A DNA stretch of 64,000 nucleotides from the NCBI GenBank assembly GCA_017499595.2, contig CM038998.1, forward strand, positions 4,402,001 to 4,466,000, given 5' to 3'. Both the position numbers and the translations under genes were made by a program. Position 1 is the stretch's first letter; every line of letters starts with the position of its first letter. Positions 17,191 through 25,143 of this stretch are shown in pieces. The stretch comes from Psilocybe cubensis. Lineage: Eukaryota. The notes beneath the pieces are model-generated. The model did not search any database and was not told where the DNA came from. It was given only the letters and a program-made list of their open reading frames with translations.

Positions 17191-17664
17191 TGAGTCAGTG
17201 GTGAGGTCTTGACGAGTATGCGTTGTTTTGTATTTATGATGTATATTATTGCACCTTTTGTTTCGCTATACTTTCACCCTGTGGAAGGAGGTTAAATAGA
17301 GCATAGCAAGCTTGTAAATGTAGAGGGAAAAGATAAGAAAGTAACGCGCGTTATACGGTTGCTTGTGTTCTGCGCGTCTGTTCGAGACTCCTATATCGTC
17401 GCGTCTCTATCACCTGACAAAGAAAAACGGCTACGAGTCACTCAACAAGCGGAGATAATGAGGGAGGATAATTCGCCGTAACGTTGATAAGGGCAGCGGG
17501 ACACTCTTTCTACTCTACTGTTCACCACAGAGGCTTACAACTTCTGAAGGGACCATCTCATTTTTGAATAGGTTACCATTCGATACACAGCGGCTTTGTT
17601 ATCGACGCTACACACAAGTCATACACATACCATACCACCTGGTCTTTGGTGAAATCGGATACAC

Positions 17665-18618
17665 ATGGAGCAAGCAAGATCCCAGGGATCCACCGTACTC
17701 CATTCAGAAATCACAATTCAGTCACTTCCTGTTGAACTCATTTTTGATATATTCACTTATTTCAAACTCAAGACTTACATCATCGCCCACGGAGTGTGCA
17801 AAGAATGGCGCCGCCTTCTTCCTCTCGCTCCCATTAACCCAGTACGCCGCCGTCTCTTCCAGCTGTACCAAAACATGATAAACACCCCGGATTTTATCAA
17901 AACACGCGTGTGGATAGTTGATAATCTAGCACCTTTCGACAGGCAGGCATACATCGATGCCCTCCTCTCTCAATATCCAGCCATTCCGGAGGAATTTCGC
18001 ATATGGATACTCGAGTGGCCTGCTCGAGCTGTCATTGCCTGCATGTGGCCAGGTTTACCTTTCTCAGTTTGCTATTCCGTCGGACCACAACGACGATACG
18101 GCGTCAATTGGTTAGGGTATAAGAAACATTCACCCAAGCTTCTCGCGCCTATCTATTGCCACGGTTCCCGTACTTCCAAGTTTTCGCCAGCTCTCTTGAT
18201 TTGGCGAGCTACATATATCACGGAATATTTGTCCTTCGATGAAAGCGAGCCTGCGCTCTTTGGCCGTGTTGTCGTTAAAGACTACATGGAGCATCAATCG
18301 CCGGCGCTCATTTTTCATCATCGGGGAGCGATATATATGTCCGGTGACAAGAAAACCGCACCATCAAACAATGACGAAAACTCGTATACGCTCAGCGGCT
18401 CCTTTCCAGATTGGATCTGTTATCTTGAGTACCAATGGGCAATTACCGTCGAGCAAATTCATTACGTTGGTTCAAGTCAGATAGATACAGGATTTTTAAT
18501 TGAGGAAGACAGAGTAATGACCTGTTTCAATCAGGATATAATGAACACACGTCCTACAATGGAATGGACAGAGAGGCAGAGATTTTTGGATCATCTTACC
18601 TTTCCTTACTACGGTTAA
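17665..18618 (+). CDS. F-box protein, copy 1 (F-box plus putative SUKH/SMI1-KNR4-like domain)
   Basis: Intronless 317-aa ORF with F-box IQSLPVELIFDIFTYF...VCKEWRRLL and the family core PFDRQAYID.LLSQYPAIPEEFRIW.LEWP. Confidence 0.85.
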   Translation: MEQARSQGSTVLHSEITIQSLPVELIFDIFTYFKLKTYIIAHGVCKEWRRLLPLAPINPVRRRLFQLYQNMINTPDFIKTRVWIVDNLAPFDRQAYIDALLSQYPAIPEEFRIWILEWPARAVIACMWPGLPFSVCYSVGPQRRYGVNWLGYKKHSPKLLAPIYCHGSRTSKFSPALLIWRATYITEYLSFDESEPALFGRVVVKDYMEHQSPALIFHHRGAIYMSGDKKTAPSNNDENSYTLSGSFPDWICYLEYQWAITVEQIHYVGSSQIDTGFLIEEDRVMTCFNQDIMNTRPTMEWTERQRFLDHLTFPYYG

Positions 18619-18906
18619 ATGCCATAAAGTCATGTATTTCCATCCATGTACGCCGTCGATAGCCGAAATTGCAGAATTAATAACCAGTGAAGTGGCTTAT
18701 TCTCCGACATTTATCTGGTGCTACTTGACCAGTGGAATTGGTTCTTTTCAGTGATGGATACCATTTAGCTCTGCCAATGCTATATAATGGGTGGAATTGG
18801 GCCTTTTCGCCAGTTTTGAGATGACATTCTTTCAATGCACATCAGTAGGATGTACTCATTTCACACCTATAAGTTTAACTTTGTCTAGTACTTTCAGCAA
18901 CTTTCC

Positions 18907-19125
18907 ATGGACAGTGCACGCGTCGCCTCCTATCATTTCAGGCGCGACGGGTGCGATGATCACATGACGGTGGTGTGCAGCTATTCTTCATACACGAGGT
19001 CGAAAGTAAAAACGTTGGGCTCCGAAAAGTCGCAAGCTACGTCCACCACGGCCAGGGTGAAGGCTACCCATTCCCATTCCCCACCTACAAACAAAATCTC
19101 TACTCCGAGAGCGATATTTATATAG
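18907..19125 (+). repeat. Upstream module shared by F-box copies (also ~20850-21068, ~22580-22795, and 31628-31849 on -)
   Basis: Shared cgtcgcctcctatc..tcaggcgcgacgggtg.g.tgatcac.tgac...tacacgaggt.gaa.gtaaaaacgtt...aatctctactccgagagcgata...tatagATGGG. Confidence 0.85.
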
Positions 19126-20244
19126 ATGGGCCAAGTTCACTCGTTGTACAATGGTCTTTCATTTCTCACTGGGCGACTCTTGTCAATCTTCGGTATTCAA
19201 CGCCTGCTATTTGGTGGCAACAAACTGCTCTTTGAAGAATCAAAATCAGAGGACACTGCTGTGCACCTTCCCAAAACCACATTCCAGTCACTTCCTGTGG
19301 AGATAATTCTTCATATCTTCTCTCATTTGGAGCTCCAGCCATACCTCTTCTCTCGTGGTGTATGCAAAGAGTGGCTGCGTCTCCTTCCGCTGGCTGATAT
19401 CCATCCAGCACGGCGCCGTTTGATTTATCTGTATTTGAAGATGGTTAACACGCCGGATTTTATCAATACCCGTACATGGATAGTTGACAAACTCCTGCCT
19501 TTCGATCGCCAAGCATACATTGACTCCCTCCTGTGCCAATATCCAGCAATTCCGGAAGAATTTCGCATCTGGCTTCTCGAGTGGCCAGAAAGAGCGACAA
19601 TAGATTGTACCTGGCCCGGCCTACCGTTTGTTTCATGCAATGATATCATTCCCAGCAAAAGGTCTGGTGTTAATTGGATGGCGTACAAAAGACATTCACC
19701 TCAGCTACTCGCACCAGTTTATAGGCAGTGCACTCCCTTTGCCAAGTTTGTCCCTGGACTTCTAATTTGGAGACAAAGTGGTTTGACAGACTGGCTCATT
19801 TTTGATAAAGATGAACCTGAAGTATTTGGTCGTGTGTATATCACCGACCTTGTGGAATTTGAAGATCCAGCGGTCATCCCTCATGAACGACAAAAAATGC
19901 TCGACGACGACGACGACCCCATTCCTATCTCCGTCAGTCCTGGTTCCGATGAAGAAGACAACGAATTCCGAGAAGATCATTCTCACGAACTAGAGGGAGC
20001 GGGCGACAAGGATACAGAAGGCTATCTCAACGTACCCCATCCCGACTGGGTTGCCTATTTAGAGAGCTGCTGGGCTGAGAATGACATTAGGCTGCAATAC
20101 CATGGAGTGCCCAACCTGATAAATGACTATCTTATCCCTGAATCTCAGGTGACTACGGAATTCAACGGGTCTTGTGTTACTACACTCCCTGCTGTTCCGT
20201 GGAGCTTACGGGAAAGATACACAGAATATCTTACGAAATTTTAA
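19126..20244 (+). CDS. F-box protein, copy 2
   Basis: Intronless 372-aa ORF with FQSLPVEIILHIFSHL...VCKEWLRLL and the same family core. Confidence 0.88.
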   Translation: MGQVHSLYNGLSFLTGRLLSIFGIQRLLFGGNKLLFEESKSEDTAVHLPKTTFQSLPVEIILHIFSHLELQPYLFSRGVCKEWLRLLPLADIHPARRRLIYLYLKMVNTPDFINTRTWIVDKLLPFDRQAYIDSLLCQYPAIPEEFRIWLLEWPERATIDCTWPGLPFVSCNDIIPSKRSGVNWMAYKRHSPQLLAPVYRQCTPFAKFVPGLLIWRQSGLTDWLIFDKDEPEVFGRVYITDLVEFEDPAVIPHERQKMLDDDDDPIPISVSPGSDEEDNEFREDHSHELEGAGDKDTEGYLNVPHPDWVAYLESCWAENDIRLQYHGVPNLINDYLIPESQVTTEFNGSCVTTLPAVPWSLRERYTEYLTKF

Positions 20245-20395
20245 CGAACTGCTCTGTTATATACTCAGGTCTCTATACATTGCATTAAGCACCATTCTGC
20301 ATGCTTTAAACAGCCTTGAAAAATTTTCATCATTCGTCATCTAATATCTTAGAGCAGGCATATTTGCTACACTACGTGGTCGAAATTTTACACAG

Positions 20396-20585
20396 TCATG
20401 TAGTGCTATTTAACGAAGAGCCTTCTCGTCCATCACTGGCCCATGATTACTACGGGACTATGCAGCCGATGAGATGCAAAATAGACATCAAAATATAAAG
20501 CCACGCACACAAGCGGGCGCTTTCTGCCCTGTACACAATTCGTAACCCCCAAATGATCATCGTTTCATTAGCCAGAAACTGAGCA
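20396..20585 (-). pseudogene. Internally deleted 3' remnant of a paralog of the deaminase-like gene at 24049-25143
   Basis: Reverse complement reads QFLANE..GLRIVYRA, then an intron-like stretch, then SWASDGREGSSLNSTT*. The intact gene reads QFLANNE...GLRIVDRA and ALWASDQQGDFSSNSNA*. Confidence 0.75.
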
Positions 20586-21068
20586 AGATACTAATTGTTC
20601 CTGCAAAATCTCATCGATTGCTTTTTGTATCACATAGTCAAAGAATATATAGTAACTTTAATTCGATTCCCAAACCGAAATTGCAGAAGTAATAACCACT
20701 GACCAGGAAGGTGGTTATTCGGCGCCTGCATTACCACTAATCAGGTGTAATATTACATATTTTCTTGCATCAGTAGGCTGTGATACCTCTATAAACATTT
20801 TTGTCTCAAACTCCAGTAACTTTCCCAGTTGATTTGATTTTGCCTTCTAACTGTGCGCACGTCGCCTCCTATCTCTCAGGCGCGACGGGTGCGATGATCA
20901 CCTGACGGTGGTATACAGACATCCATATATACACGAGGTTGAACGTAAAAACGTTGGGCTCTGAAAACTTACAAGCAACGACCACCACGTCCAGGGAAGA
21001 GGTAACCCATTCCCATTCTCCGCCCACAAGCCTAATCTCTACTCCGAGAGCGATACCTCACTGTATAG

Positions 21069-22127
21069 ATGGGCCAAGTTTACTCGTTGTACAATGGCCT
21101 TTTCTCTCTCAGTCAATGGTCCATTCTCAGTATTCGCCGACTACTATTTAGTGGAAACGAACTGCTACTGGAAGGTCCAAAATCAGAAGAAACTAAAGAT
21201 TATCCCAAAGCAACACTCCAATCACTTCCTGTCGAAATACTTCTTCATATTTTCTCACATTTGGAGCTTAAACCATACCTCTTCTCTCGTGGTGTATGCA
21301 AAGAATGGCAGCGCCTTCTCCCACTCGCTGATATCCTTCCAGCACGACGCCGTCTGCTCGAGCTGTATTTAAAGATGATTAATACGCCGAATTTCATCGA
21401 TACCCGTTCATGGATACTCGAGAATCTCCAGCCTTTTGACCGCCAGGCTTATATTGACACCATCCTCTCTCAATATCCGGCAATTCCTGAGGAATTTCGT
21501 ATATGGCTTCTTGAATGGCCAGAACGGGCAACTATAAATTGTATCTGGCCAGGCCTACCGTTTGTTTCATGCAATGACCTCAGTCCCAGCAGAAGGGATG
21601 GAGTTAACTGGGTGGCGTACAAAAGTCATTCCCCTCAACTTCTTGCGCCAGTCTATAGGCAAGGTACCCCCAATGCCAAATTTATTCCAGGTCTTTTGAT
21701 CTGGAGGCATCACTATAGGACAGAATGGCTTATTTTTGATAAGGATGAACCCCAACTCTTCGGTCGCGTTTATGTAACCAGACTCATGGAACTTGAAATG
21801 CCAGCGGACATCCAACATGAACGTCGACTGACTGCCGAAGATGATGAAGAAGACATCGAGTCTCTAGAATATTCTCTTGAAGAAGAGGGCACGGACGACA
21901 CGGACGGCAGGTTCAATGTACCATATCCTGATTGGATTAGCTATTTGGAGAGCTGCTGGACCGAGAACCTCAGGAGGTTGGAAAAACGGAGAATATTTCT
22001 CCTAAAAGACGATATTATTGATGAATCTGATATCGGACCTTATTTCAATGGGCACAACGATACAATGCTTCCTGCTTTCTCATGGAGCTTACGAGATTCG
22101 TTTACAGAGTGCCTTGTAACAAGTTAA
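21069..22127 (+). CDS. F-box protein, copy 3
   Basis: Intronless 352-aa ORF with the same F-box and family core. Confidence 0.88.
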   Translation: MGQVYSLYNGLFSLSQWSILSIRRLLFSGNELLLEGPKSEETKDYPKATLQSLPVEILLHIFSHLELKPYLFSRGVCKEWQRLLPLADILPARRRLLELYLKMINTPNFIDTRSWILENLQPFDRQAYIDTILSQYPAIPEEFRIWLLEWPERATINCIWPGLPFVSCNDLSPSRRDGVNWVAYKSHSPQLLAPVYRQGTPNAKFIPGLLIWRHHYRTEWLIFDKDEPQLFGRVYVTRLMELEMPADIQHERRLTAEDDEEDIESLEYSLEEEGTDDTDGRFNVPYPDWISYLESCWTENLRRLEKRRIFLLKDDIIDESDIGPYFNGHNDTMLPAFSWSLRDSFTECLVTS

Positions 22128-22303
22128 TTCTGGAAGGCTGTTGCGTACATAAAGATGTATACATTGGTAGTCCTGTTTGAATACTGCAGGGAAATTATTC
22201 TATGCACCAAGTAGATGTTGAAAACTCCTCTCATACAGTACTAAAGATTTGAAAGTGGATTTATACATTGCTCTATGCAATTGAAATTGTGCATGGCAGA
22301 TAG

Positions 22304-22446
22304 CTAGGCAGTACTACTTGATGCAGAAGGTATGCCTGCCCCTTGTCCACTGGTAAATAATGCAAGCTAGAAAGGCCGAAGGATCAGTACAAATACTTTT
22401 AGGAATATGAAGATACGTACAGTTGCCTCGGATTGATATATTGCAT
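22304..22446 (-). pseudogene. 3'-terminal remnant of a deaminase-like paralog
   Basis: aatatgaagatacgtacagttgcctcggattgatatattgcat (~22404-22446) matches aatatgaagacacatacagtggcatcggattgatatattacat (~24145-24187). It retains IYQSEAT, a GT..AG intron and a last exon LALFTSGQGAGIPSASSSTA*. Confidence 0.75.
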
Positions 22447-22795
22447 TACCGCTAATCAGTTGTAATATTACATATGTTCTTGCATCAGCAGGCTGTGATA
22501 CTTCTATAAAGATTTTTGTCTAAAACTCCAGTAACTTTCCCATGATTTGTATGTTTTGCATTGATTTGATTTTGCTTTCTGACTGCGCACACGTCGCCTC
22601 CTATCTCTCAGGCGCGACGGGTGTGGTGATCACATGACAGTGATGTACAGACGTCCATACACGAGGTTGAACGTAAAAACGTTGGGCACTGAAAGTTACA
22701 AGCTACGTCCACCACGTCCACCGAGGAGGCTACCCATTCCCATTCTCCGCCCACAAACCTAATCTCTACTCCGAGAGCGATACCTCACTGTATAG

Positions 22796-23896
22796 ATGGG
22801 CCAAGTTCACTCGTTGTACAATGGCCTTTTCTCTCTCAGTCAATGGTCCATTCTCAGTGTTCGCCGACTACTATTTGGTGGAAACGAGCTGCTACTGGAA
22901 GGGTTAAAATCAGAAGAAACTACTGTGTACCTTCCCGAAGCAACTTTTCAATCACTTCCTGTCGAGATAATTCTTCATATTTTCTCACATTTGGAGCTCA
23001 AACCATACCTCTTCTCTCGCGGTGTATGCAAAGAATGGCAGCGCCTTCTCCCACTCGCTGATATCCATCCAGCACGGTGCCGTTTGATTGATCTGTATTT
23101 GAAGATGGTTAACACACCAAATTTCATCGACACTCGTACATGGATAATTGACAATCTCCAGCCGTTCGACCGACATGCGTACATTGACACCCTCCTTTCG
23201 CAATATCCAGCAGTTCCTGAAGAGTTCCGAATTTGGCTTCTAGAGTGGCCAGAAAGGGCTACTGTGAATTGTATCTGGCCTGGTCTGCCACTCGTATCGT
23301 GCACCGACTTCAGACCCAGTAGACGGTGTGGCGCTAACTGGGTGGCGTACAACAGGCATTCTCCTCAGCTTCTTGCCCCAGTTTATAGGCAGCATACCCC
23401 CTTTGCCAAGTTTGTCCCCGGTCTTTTAATTTGGAGGCAAGGTAGCTCAACAGAGTGGCTCATCTTCGACAAAGACGAACCTGAACTCTTCGGTCGTGTC
23501 TATGTCACCGATCGGTTGGAAAATGAAAAACCGGCGGTCATTCCACACGAGCGACAAAAAATCCCTGATGACGACGATGACGAGCCCATCTCTGGATCCG
23601 AGGATGAAGACGGTGAGTTCCGAGAAGAGTTCTCTTCTGGACTTATGCTAACCGACGACGTGGATTCAGAAGGCTACCTCAATGTACCATATCTCGATTG
23701 GATTAGCTTTTTGGAGCGTTGCTGGGATAAAAATGCCCGCACGCTTCAATATCATAAGGTGCATGGTTATCTAAAAGACCTTGCTATAACTGAATCCGAT
23801 ATGGGTCCGGAATTCAACTCGTTTTATGAAACTAGACTCCCCGCTTTTCCGTGGATCGCACGGGAGTCATTTACAGAGTATCTCTTGAAGAAATAG
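22796..23896 (+). CDS. F-box protein, copy 4
   Basis: Intronless 366-aa ORF with the same F-box and family core. Confidence 0.88.
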   Translation: MGQVHSLYNGLFSLSQWSILSVRRLLFGGNELLLEGLKSEETTVYLPEATFQSLPVEIILHIFSHLELKPYLFSRGVCKEWQRLLPLADIHPARCRLIDLYLKMVNTPNFIDTRTWIIDNLQPFDRHAYIDTLLSQYPAVPEEFRIWLLEWPERATVNCIWPGLPLVSCTDFRPSRRCGANWVAYNRHSPQLLAPVYRQHTPFAKFVPGLLIWRQGSSTEWLIFDKDEPELFGRVYVTDRLENEKPAVIPHERQKIPDDDDDEPISGSEDEDGEFREEFSSGLMLTDDVDSEGYLNVPYLDWISFLERCWDKNARTLQYHKVHGYLKDLAITESDMGPEFNSFYETRLPAFPWIARESFTEYLLKK

Positions 23897-24048
23897 TCTA
23901 CTACAATTCTTTACTTACAAGGAAATCTATTGTTACTTCAGCTTTCTCTAACCTTTCAAAGAACTATAGAAAACGGTCATCCAATTTCCCAGAGCTGGCA
24001 TACTTTATACATTATGCGGTTGACAATACACACGTTACGCTAGTAGTA

Positions 24049-25143
24049 CTATGCATTGCTATTTGACGAAAAATCTCCTTGTTGGTCACTGGCCCATAGT
24101 GCATACTAAATGAAACAGTGAGTAAGTCAGAAAAACCCTATAACAATATGAAGACACATACAGTGGCATCGGATTGATATATTACATGTGCCCTATCCAC
24201 AATTCGTAAGCCCAGAGTCTTTCTAACAAGATCTGTAGCATGGCGCCTGCAATTCAGGCAGAATGCTATCGGTTCTTTAGCGGTACTCATACTCAAAGAA
24301 TATACACTGATCACTCGATTGCCTTGTTCATTGTTAGCCAAAAACTGGATGGCAGCCTTCAGGATGTAAGGTAATGCAATGTTTTCAGCGCATTGCTCCA
24401 CAGGGCGTTCCTCCAAAGATTCTTCGTGCGGGTTACTGCCGTTAAGGGTGGGAAATACTAGAGCTCGGCGATAAAGACGATCCATTTTTTTCTCTGCTTC
24501 AGTGGGTTTGCGTCTGACCCTGGAAGCTGCCGAGCTGTGACCATAGTGGTCTGGGATGGTTTTCTCTTCTGTTTCCACAATGCAAAAGGCATTGAACTGA
24601 GACTTCGCGATATTGTTTCCACGGCTGTGGATATAAGAGTCGATAAATCTCCCCAAGGAAAAGTATGGATTGCGAGTTCCATTGGGATCCGTTGCTTTAG
24701 GATGTTGCAAGCTATACGCAATGGTGCGCAGGATTCGTTGATAGAAAGGGTCGTGAGTATAGGCGGGCAATGTGTCGTCGTCTCGGATCCCTATCATGGC
24801 AGGAGAAATTAGGCCTTTCTCAATCCAGTGCTTAACACAGTTGTCAAGGTAATTTGCTTTTTCCTCGTCAGACGCCGTGTCAAAGTTGAACGGAACTAAA
24901 GATTGTCAACAGGTTCGACGACTATGAGCTTGGGGTACAGACAGCAATAGAGAATCACTAACAGGGGGGATACGCTTGAGGATCAACAAGTGGTTTGTTC
25001 AGGAAAGAGGCAATTTCCTCAATATGGAACAAACAAGCGTTGAAAAATATCATATCACTCTCATTAAGAGGAGTTTGAATCATGTCTGAAGCTAGGCTCA
25101 ATTGAGTATGATTATATCGTCATATGGAACACCACATACTCAT
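24049..25143 (-). CDS. Putative Zn-dependent deaminase-fold protein (CAE...CxxC), about 4 exons
   Basis: Predicted spliced product MTSDMIQTPLNES...PVEQCAENIALPYI...VYSLSMSTAKEPIAFCLNCRR...GLRIVDRA...DAT|YALWASD...*. Predicted introns near 25093-25139, 24896-24962 and 24106-24161. Confidence 0.65.

Follow-up and report, generated by a model that had tools for sequence, protein, structure and literature searches.

A decayed fragment of a deaminase-like gene lies behind the second of four tandem F-box genes in the 64,000-nucleotide stretch of Psilocybe cubensis DNA analysed here (the window). This fragment, remnant A, is a non-functional, truncated duplicate of the 3' third of gene B, the intact gene at the end of the array; most likely, tandem duplication within the array produced it, and it would have lacked the catalytic CxE motif from the start or from very early on. 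An earlier note on this DNA had proposed a once larger paralog that was inactivated while its F-box partner stayed intact. A dead paralog remnant beside an intact F-box gene is indeed present, but its lesion is a different one from that proposed, and a former whole gene is not in evidence.

The F-box array and its repeat units

In the open-frame listing, the window holds a plus-strand tandem array of four F-box genes, and gene B adjoins copy 4 in convergent orientation. The following features make up the array:

17653-18618, plus strand: F-box copy 1, open reading frame
18663-18712, no strand assigned: piece behind F-box copy 1, matching only the spacer end of the copy-2 remnant
19126-20244, plus strand: F-box copy 2 (also copy 2 of the earlier note), intact open frame of 372 codons
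20672-20726, no strand assigned: spacer of 55 bp from remnant A to the next unit, also found behind F-box copy 1
20727-21068, plus strand: start of the next repeat unit (homolog of 22442-22795), lying upstream of F-box copy 3
21069-22127, plus strand: F-box copy 3, open reading frame
22259-22441, minus strand: shorter gene B remnant behind F-box copy 3, made up of 3' flank, last exon, intron and the 9 codons that end exon 2
22796-23896, plus strand: F-box copy 4, open reading frame
24049-25083, minus strand: gene B (JR316_0001479), intact; exons 25083-24963, 24895-24162 and 24105-24049; 303 aa

The intactness claimed for F-box copy 2 holds, as its open frame matches the Pfam F-box-like family (E 4.3e-6) and shows 0 differences from the X10 contigs that lie on 19121-19305 and 19380-19640. 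Copy 4 matches the same family with E 7e-7. Runs X10 and X11 were guessed to be RNA, which their spliced contigs support.

The repeat structure is seen between copies 3 and 4, where 20727-21823 aligns with 22442-23553 at 83% (BLASTN) and the 32-mer at 20727 is seen again at 22442 with 2 mismatches. The F-box upstream regions (20727-21068, 22442-22795 and 18910-19125) are 85-90% identical (309/345; 179/211), while four-fold degenerate sites in the coding regions of the tandem F-box genes are just 57-61% identical. This contrast in the sequences suggests that promoter and 5' UTR undergo gene conversion or are under strong constraint.

The pattern of 20675-20699, within the spacer, is found again at 18663-18687 with 23/25 matches; two matches were seen in 0/100 shuffles. 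Compared with gene B 24331-24470, the spacer region 20672-20726 gave a score of 12, which 92% of 1000 shuffles reached, and no B-like sequence was found in 20672-20745. By eye, the spacer also contains a 9-bp perfect inverted repeat, AATAACCAC and GTGGTTATT, separated by 11 nt (20692-20720). In the remnant behind copy 3, the block 22391-22446 matches gene B 24132-24187 at 80% over 56 nt (E 2e-9), and the similarity of flank and last exon to gene B is weaker than that of this block. This remnant ends with NAIYQSEAT and a GTACGT donor and meets the next unit at T[A/G]CAT microhomology.

The apparently continuous open frame of F-box copy 4 includes a 57-nt in-frame GT..AG intron (23612-23668), which is removed in X10 and X11 contigs. 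Transcript-type contigs, which are unstranded, run from the coding region of copy 4 to 24084, beyond the gene B stop codon (24049-24051), so that copy 4 and the convergent gene B appear to overlap at their 3' ends (23897-24105 of the window).

The window contains extra F-box copies at 30.5-34.5 kb (minus strand) and at 55.3 kb. Those in inverted orientation lie on the minus strand at 34478-33376 and 31846-30544, and the former is 87% identical to copy 4 in the coding region alone, the homology beginning 3 nt ahead of the ATG and ending at the stop. No gene B remnants were found behind the minus-strand copies.

Gene B, a predicted deaminase

The exon-2 translation of gene B is a 100% match to the P. 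cubensis hypothetical protein JR316_0001479 (P0001). The three-exon model forms a single open frame of 303 codons, of which the 230-aa NCBI model P0001 is a suffix. Its introns have the borders GTTAGT..TAG and GTATGT..TAG, and intron 1 is absent (spliced) in an X10 contig. The CxE codons lie at 24392-24384 and the CxxC codons at 24260-24249. BLASTN, tblastn and the family HMM revealed no other occurrence in the window of the 5' part of gene B or of its upstream DNA.

The family of gene B is small: a profile search (E 1e-3 or better) found 39 representatives, and those with names belong to P. cubensis, P. cyanescens and Agrocybe pediades. Another P. cubensis paralog, JR316_0001441 (P0007, 350 aa), is encoded on the same 4.68-Mb contig outside the window, 38 locus tags from gene B, and shares 37% identity with P0001 (BLASTP). 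Across a 37-sequence alignment E138 of the C-A-E motif is invariant (37/37), and C136, C180 and C183 are each conserved in at least 90% of the sequences. No Pfam family, of deaminases or otherwise, matched any of 41 sequences (the exon-2 ORF and 40 family proteins; E cut-offs 1, 10 and 0.1), and among these 0 deaminase matches the OTT_1508 deaminase model of Pfam is likewise absent. A PDB sequence search with the family profile gave chance-level PPAR matches only (E 0.25 or worse).

The AlphaFold model of gene B (pLDDT 87.7, pTM 0.84) places C136-A-E138 at the start of helix 2 (138-154) and C180 and C183 at the start of helix 3 (181-193), and a hairpin of strands 197-201 and 205-207 comes after the CxxC helix. 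Foldseek ranked blasticidin-S deaminases best (2z3h_A, E 0.027, probability 0.96). VIA-align, a search independent of Foldseek, found the blasticidin-S deaminase 3oj6_A (Z 7.7, rmsd 3.2, 103 aligned), the cytidine deaminase 3b8f_A (Z 7.1), the dsDNA deaminase DddB 9k3e_B (Z 6.2), a type VI secretion cytidine-deaminase toxin (Z 5.8) and PPR-DYW (Z 5.2), and its first 11 rows were all deaminase-fold proteins. Since these Z values are middling (all <8), the deaminase case for gene B rests on fold and motifs jointly. The gene B model shows the three-layer alpha/beta/alpha fold expected of the CDA superfamily, with [C/H]xE (a zinc ligand and the catalytic Glu) at the start of helix 2 and CxxC at the start of helix 3. 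Gene B is predicted to encode a zinc-dependent deaminase with the cytidine-deaminase fold.

The closest structural matches, blasticidin-S deaminase and CDA, share with gene B the zinc-ligand pattern Cys-x-Glu ... Cys-x-x-Cys. They differ in that identity is 10-15%, that gene B has no sequence-level match to any PDB chain, and that gene B carries an N-terminal extension of ~60 residues and an insert of ~50 residues. According to Iyer et al. 2011 (PMC3239186), CDA, BSD, DYW and YwqJ belong to the division with a C-terminal hairpin, a few YwqJ-like paralogs are reported in mushrooms, and the OTT_1508-like fungal deaminases, with lineage-specific expansions in mushrooms, form a clade of the helix-4 division. 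Gene B differs from the OTT_1508-like proteins, as strands 4 and 5 form a hairpin in its model and enzymes of the hairpin division match it best.

Gene B resembles YwqJ-like deaminases in several respects: its model has CxE in helix 2, CxxC at helix 3 and the strand-4/5 hairpin, its language-model features are nearest to YwqJ-deaminase clusters (0.90 and 0.88), and paralogs are few in its family too, with 2 in P. cubensis. On the other side, the Pfam family PF14431 was matched by 0/41 gene B family sequences, and only 4/37 have the Gly at -2 of the clade signature Gx[CH]xE. Both inserts are present in gene B and its family, but the 37-sequence alignment shows no family-wide conservation of the YGHS His and no strictly conserved His within the insert. 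Because PF14431 gave no match and the clade signatures are partial, we call gene B deaminase-like, possibly YwqJ-like; the label deaminase-like holds for a protein whose modelled fold is confident and whose CxE and CxxC motifs are conserved.

The remnant behind F-box copy 2

On the minus strand, remnant A (20336-20671) follows gene B collinearly through the 3' flank, the last exon and intron 2 and through the last ~50 exon-2 codons. The local alignment of the two regions, which the earlier note had suggested as a check, is significant: it scores 52, whereas the highest score among 300 shuffles was 27. From the 3' side, remnant A consists of four parts:

20336-20395, minus strand: 3' flank, matching 23976-24048; 44/60 aligned columns identical
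20396-20443, minus strand: last-exon remnant, WASDGREGSSLNSTT and stop (20396-20398); 35/48 nt identical to 24049-24096, no indel
20444-20512, minus strand: equivalent of intron 2 together with the first three exon-3 codons and the HVIYQSDAT end of exon 2; 39/55 aligned columns identical
20513-20671, minus strand: exon-2 tail remnant with strand 3, CxxC site, helix 3 and strand 4, recognised by tblastn, HMM and DNA score

The shared 3' flank had been noticed before and is borne out by BLASTN (20336-20444 versus 23976-24097, 66% over 122 nt, E 4e-5); the part 20336-20395 probably serves F-box copy 2 as its 3' UTR as well. Further collinear BLASTN blocks cover 20398-20509, 20525-20549 and 20598-20649. 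The second of these contains the earlier observed match of tgccctgtacacaattcgtaaccccc (20525-20550) to gene B 24189-24214, which is 88% identical over 25 nt and lies on the collinear diagonal. The last exon persists as well: WASDGREGSSLNSTT pairs with WASDQQGDFSSNSNA of gene B without an indel, and the stop is at the identical position. As the equivalent of intron 2 is kept at 20444-20512, remnant A is a DNA-level duplicate and not a retrocopy; an origin as a processed pseudogene is thereby ruled out.

The minus strand of the exon-2 tail indeed translates to YLAQFLANETMIIWGLRIVYRA, with QFLANE next to GLRIVYRA. The earlier note had concluded from this junction that ~35 codons with the CxxC segment were lost, which would make remnant A a complete second deaminase gene inactivated by an in-frame deletion. 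The loss of these codons is refuted by the alignments, and we consider the reading as a whole scarcely credible. What speaks for it is that both sequences contain QFLAN in the frame of GLRIV, and that the underlying ttagccagaaactg and ttagccaaaaactg are identical at 13/14 nt. This match, however, is off the diagonal of the three collinear matches by ~102-111 nt, and a 14-mer with at most 1 mismatch occurred in 16/200 shuffles, so on sequence grounds the QFLAN match is out of register and compatible with chance. In register, AQFLANET of remnant A is the remnant of helix 3, located after the CxxC site, and the distant relative P0025 has AQTLADET at the same place.

The segment supposed to be deleted is in fact there, collinear and mutated. 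Remnant A 20671-20522 is collinear with gene B residues 159-203 (tblastn, E 5e-4), and the family HMM recognises it at positions 199-243 (i-E 4.7e-6). At the DNA level, 20551-20671 aligns with 24215-24330 with a score of 31, and 0/1000 shuffles scored as high. The main diagonal also holds matches at 20633-20651, although this part would lie upstream of the supposed deletion. The remnant A reading GNRIKVTIYSLTM-stop-YKKQSMRFCRNN-stop-YLAQFLANETMIIWGLRIVYRA pairs with GNRV-ISVYSLSMSTAKEPIAFCLNCRRHATDLVRKTL---GLRIVDRA of gene B in one frame throughout. The decayed strand-3/CxxC segment at 20599-20671 reads VTIYSLTM, a stop, YKKQSMRFCRNN and a second stop. Its first Cys codon is kept (TGC, 20605-20603), while the position of the second is now AAT (20596-20594), and the two in-frame stops of the exon-2 tail are TGA at 20632-20630 and TAG at 20593-20591.

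Other lesions are an 11-nt frameshifting deletion relative to gene B in the HVIYQSDAT codons (global alignment) and in-frame TAG and TAA at 20452-20450 and 20449-20447, in the equivalent of the intron-2 3' end and the first exon-3 codons. The N-terminal ~60% of gene B, including the catalytic CxE, is missing. With four stops, AAT at the second Cys and an unrecognisable CxE region, remnant A is not an intact member of the gene B family. Beyond 20671 homology is no longer recognisable, and after a further 55 bp the next repeat unit starts at 20727. Upstream of GNR, the 18 codons APNNHLPGQWLLLLQFRF are faintly like AENIALPY...QF of gene B; remnant A may once have reached the CxE codons, although this resemblance in sequence is not significant, and an extension into the CxE region is supported neither by the HMM envelope nor by DNA alignment.

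Origin of the remnant and variation among strains

Most likely, the F-box array expanded through tandem duplications. The duplicated unit, of ~1.7-1.9 kb, would begin ~350 bp upstream of an F-box gene, run through this gene and extend into the convergent gene B. The far breakpoint of the unit would lie inside exon 2 of gene B, downstream of CxE or at most at CxE. Every new unit would thus have carried a promoterless, CxE-less gene B tail that was dead on arrival, and the last unit alone would run into the whole gene. Remnant A would since then have undergone roughly neutral decay, with stops, loss of the Cys codon and the 11-nt deletion, and its sister fragments behind copies 1 and 3 would have been shortened further by deletions.

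Since F-box transcripts reach past the gene B stop, duplication of a complete F-box transcription unit would include the last exon of gene B, and the shorter remnants behind copies 1 and 3 make it most likely that the array grew via a unit with its breakpoint inside gene B. Ungapped blocks of remnant A and gene B are 62-88% identical (BLASTN), which is comparable to the F-box four-fold sites and thus consistent with co-duplication and neutral decay. The earlier note had allowed that only a short 3' fragment was ever duplicated; this agrees with the repeat boundaries, but the fragment is longer than was then seen.

A full-length paralog could instead have been co-duplicated with the F-box gene and have lost its 5' 60% later, followed by decay of the remainder. 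The remnants behind copies 1 and 3 did undergo deletions, which shows such losses in the array, and weak hints come from the in-frame indels and the kept stop position of remnant A. Such a course, however, needs an extra deletion that ends exactly at the start of a repeat unit, and this deletion must predate the split of units 1 and 2, because both share the spacer. Moreover, the 5' region of gene B and its upstream DNA belong to no unit, and the divergence fits neutral decay since duplication. We therefore regard a later truncation as unlikely.

Some observations do not sit easily with a tail that was dead on arrival. Both indels of the exon-2 tail relative to gene B are in frame (+1 and +3 codons), and the last exon keeps its frame and stop position. 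The copy could thus have been under selection for a time, the probability of two such indels by chance being ~1 in 9. In addition, helix 3 of remnant A is strongly different from helix 3 of gene B.

As a truncated tandem duplicate, remnant A resembles partial tandem-duplicate pseudogenes at array junctions: it is an intron-retaining DNA-level copy cut at a repeat-unit boundary, lacks promoter and 5' exons, has stops and a frameshift, and is accompanied by nested shorter remnants in sister units of the F-box array. Nothing about it is unusual in this respect, save that part of it probably doubles as F-box 3' UTR, given that the F-box gene and gene B converge and share transcribed ends at the intact locus.

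An intact allele in another strain, which the earlier note had suggested looking for, was not found in X5, a DNA run of another strain. Its contig over 19614-20889 shows the same decayed remnant A with 9 differences, and a contig over 23801-25400 shows the same gene B with 2 differences. X10 and X11 have no contig on 20070-20497, an absence that carries no weight, and X12, whose only three contigs (151 nt each) do not differ from the window, is of no use as a sister species.

One X10 contig (1109 nt, depth 122) represents a variant of gene B. On gene B 24349-24894 it has 49 differences and is about 91% identical. It is without intron 1, and its SDAT codons are joined directly to the YALW... 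last exon, so intron 2 is missing as well. Its strand-3/CxxC patch is placed on remnant A 20597-20655 (at least 85% identical) and not on gene B, while the flanks of the patch, KFLANGNGTRV and CKRHTRSLT, are B-like (24/35 positions match gene B; there is no match to remnant A). By this one contig, some strain expresses a B-type gene whose FCRNC site is intact and in which a patch of ~60 nt is closer to remnant A than reference gene B is. Because of this expressed variant, the history is not one of simple copy and decay of reference gene B. As far as the sequences tell, gene conversion between the remnant and a live gene could account for the patch, as could uneven divergence.

The variant contig, with its A-like CxxC patch between B-like flanks, would also suit a remnant kept as a sequence reservoir, from which short gene-conversion tracts diversify the zinc-site and substrate-facing part of a polymorphic deaminase. 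It is, however, a single contig of one run, and it may stem from a paralog elsewhere in that strain. Remnant A and gene B already agree at 44/56 positions, with gaps, within the patch, so the excess similarity is modest; any exchange may have run in either direction, and the tract in remnant A has a stop inside. A reservoir role is thus improbable. We hold it slightly more doubtful still that the array remnants as a group are not inert but exchange sequence with the live gene B by gene conversion, giving alleles ~9% apart that differ most at the zinc site. If this were true, the array would be a eukaryotic counterpart to the orphan C-terminal cassettes by which polymorphic deaminase toxins of bacteria are diversified, and exchange between remnants and gene B would possibly serve non-self discrimination between fungal individuals.

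Variation at the locus is not restricted to this contig. X10 and X11 contigs on gene B (24349-25091) and on F-box copy 3 (21285-22114) are 5-9% off the window, whereas those on copies 2 and 4 are identical. X5 contains both forms of F-box copy 3 (variant depth about 10 of 19-28) and the reference form only of gene B. By the pattern in X10, X11 and X5, either the locus is mosaic and highly polymorphic or there are paralogs that were not assembled.

Taken as a truncated tandem duplicate, remnant A is an ordinary junction pseudogene, a by-product of tandem duplication. It matters little in itself but records how the F-box array grew, and the first reading of it is corrected in that the zinc-site segment is mutated, not deleted. 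Of wider interest is gene B, which together with about 40 relatives forms a mushroom family without a Pfam entry, with a confident deaminase fold and intact catalytic motifs. To our knowledge, fungal C-to-T mutators and editing enzymes are still poorly assigned. Judged by its structural model, the gene B family is a candidate nucleic-acid or nucleoside deaminase in fungi. The gene B locus, moreover, gives a hint of unusually high polymorphism across P. cubensis strains and of possible recombination with the remnants.
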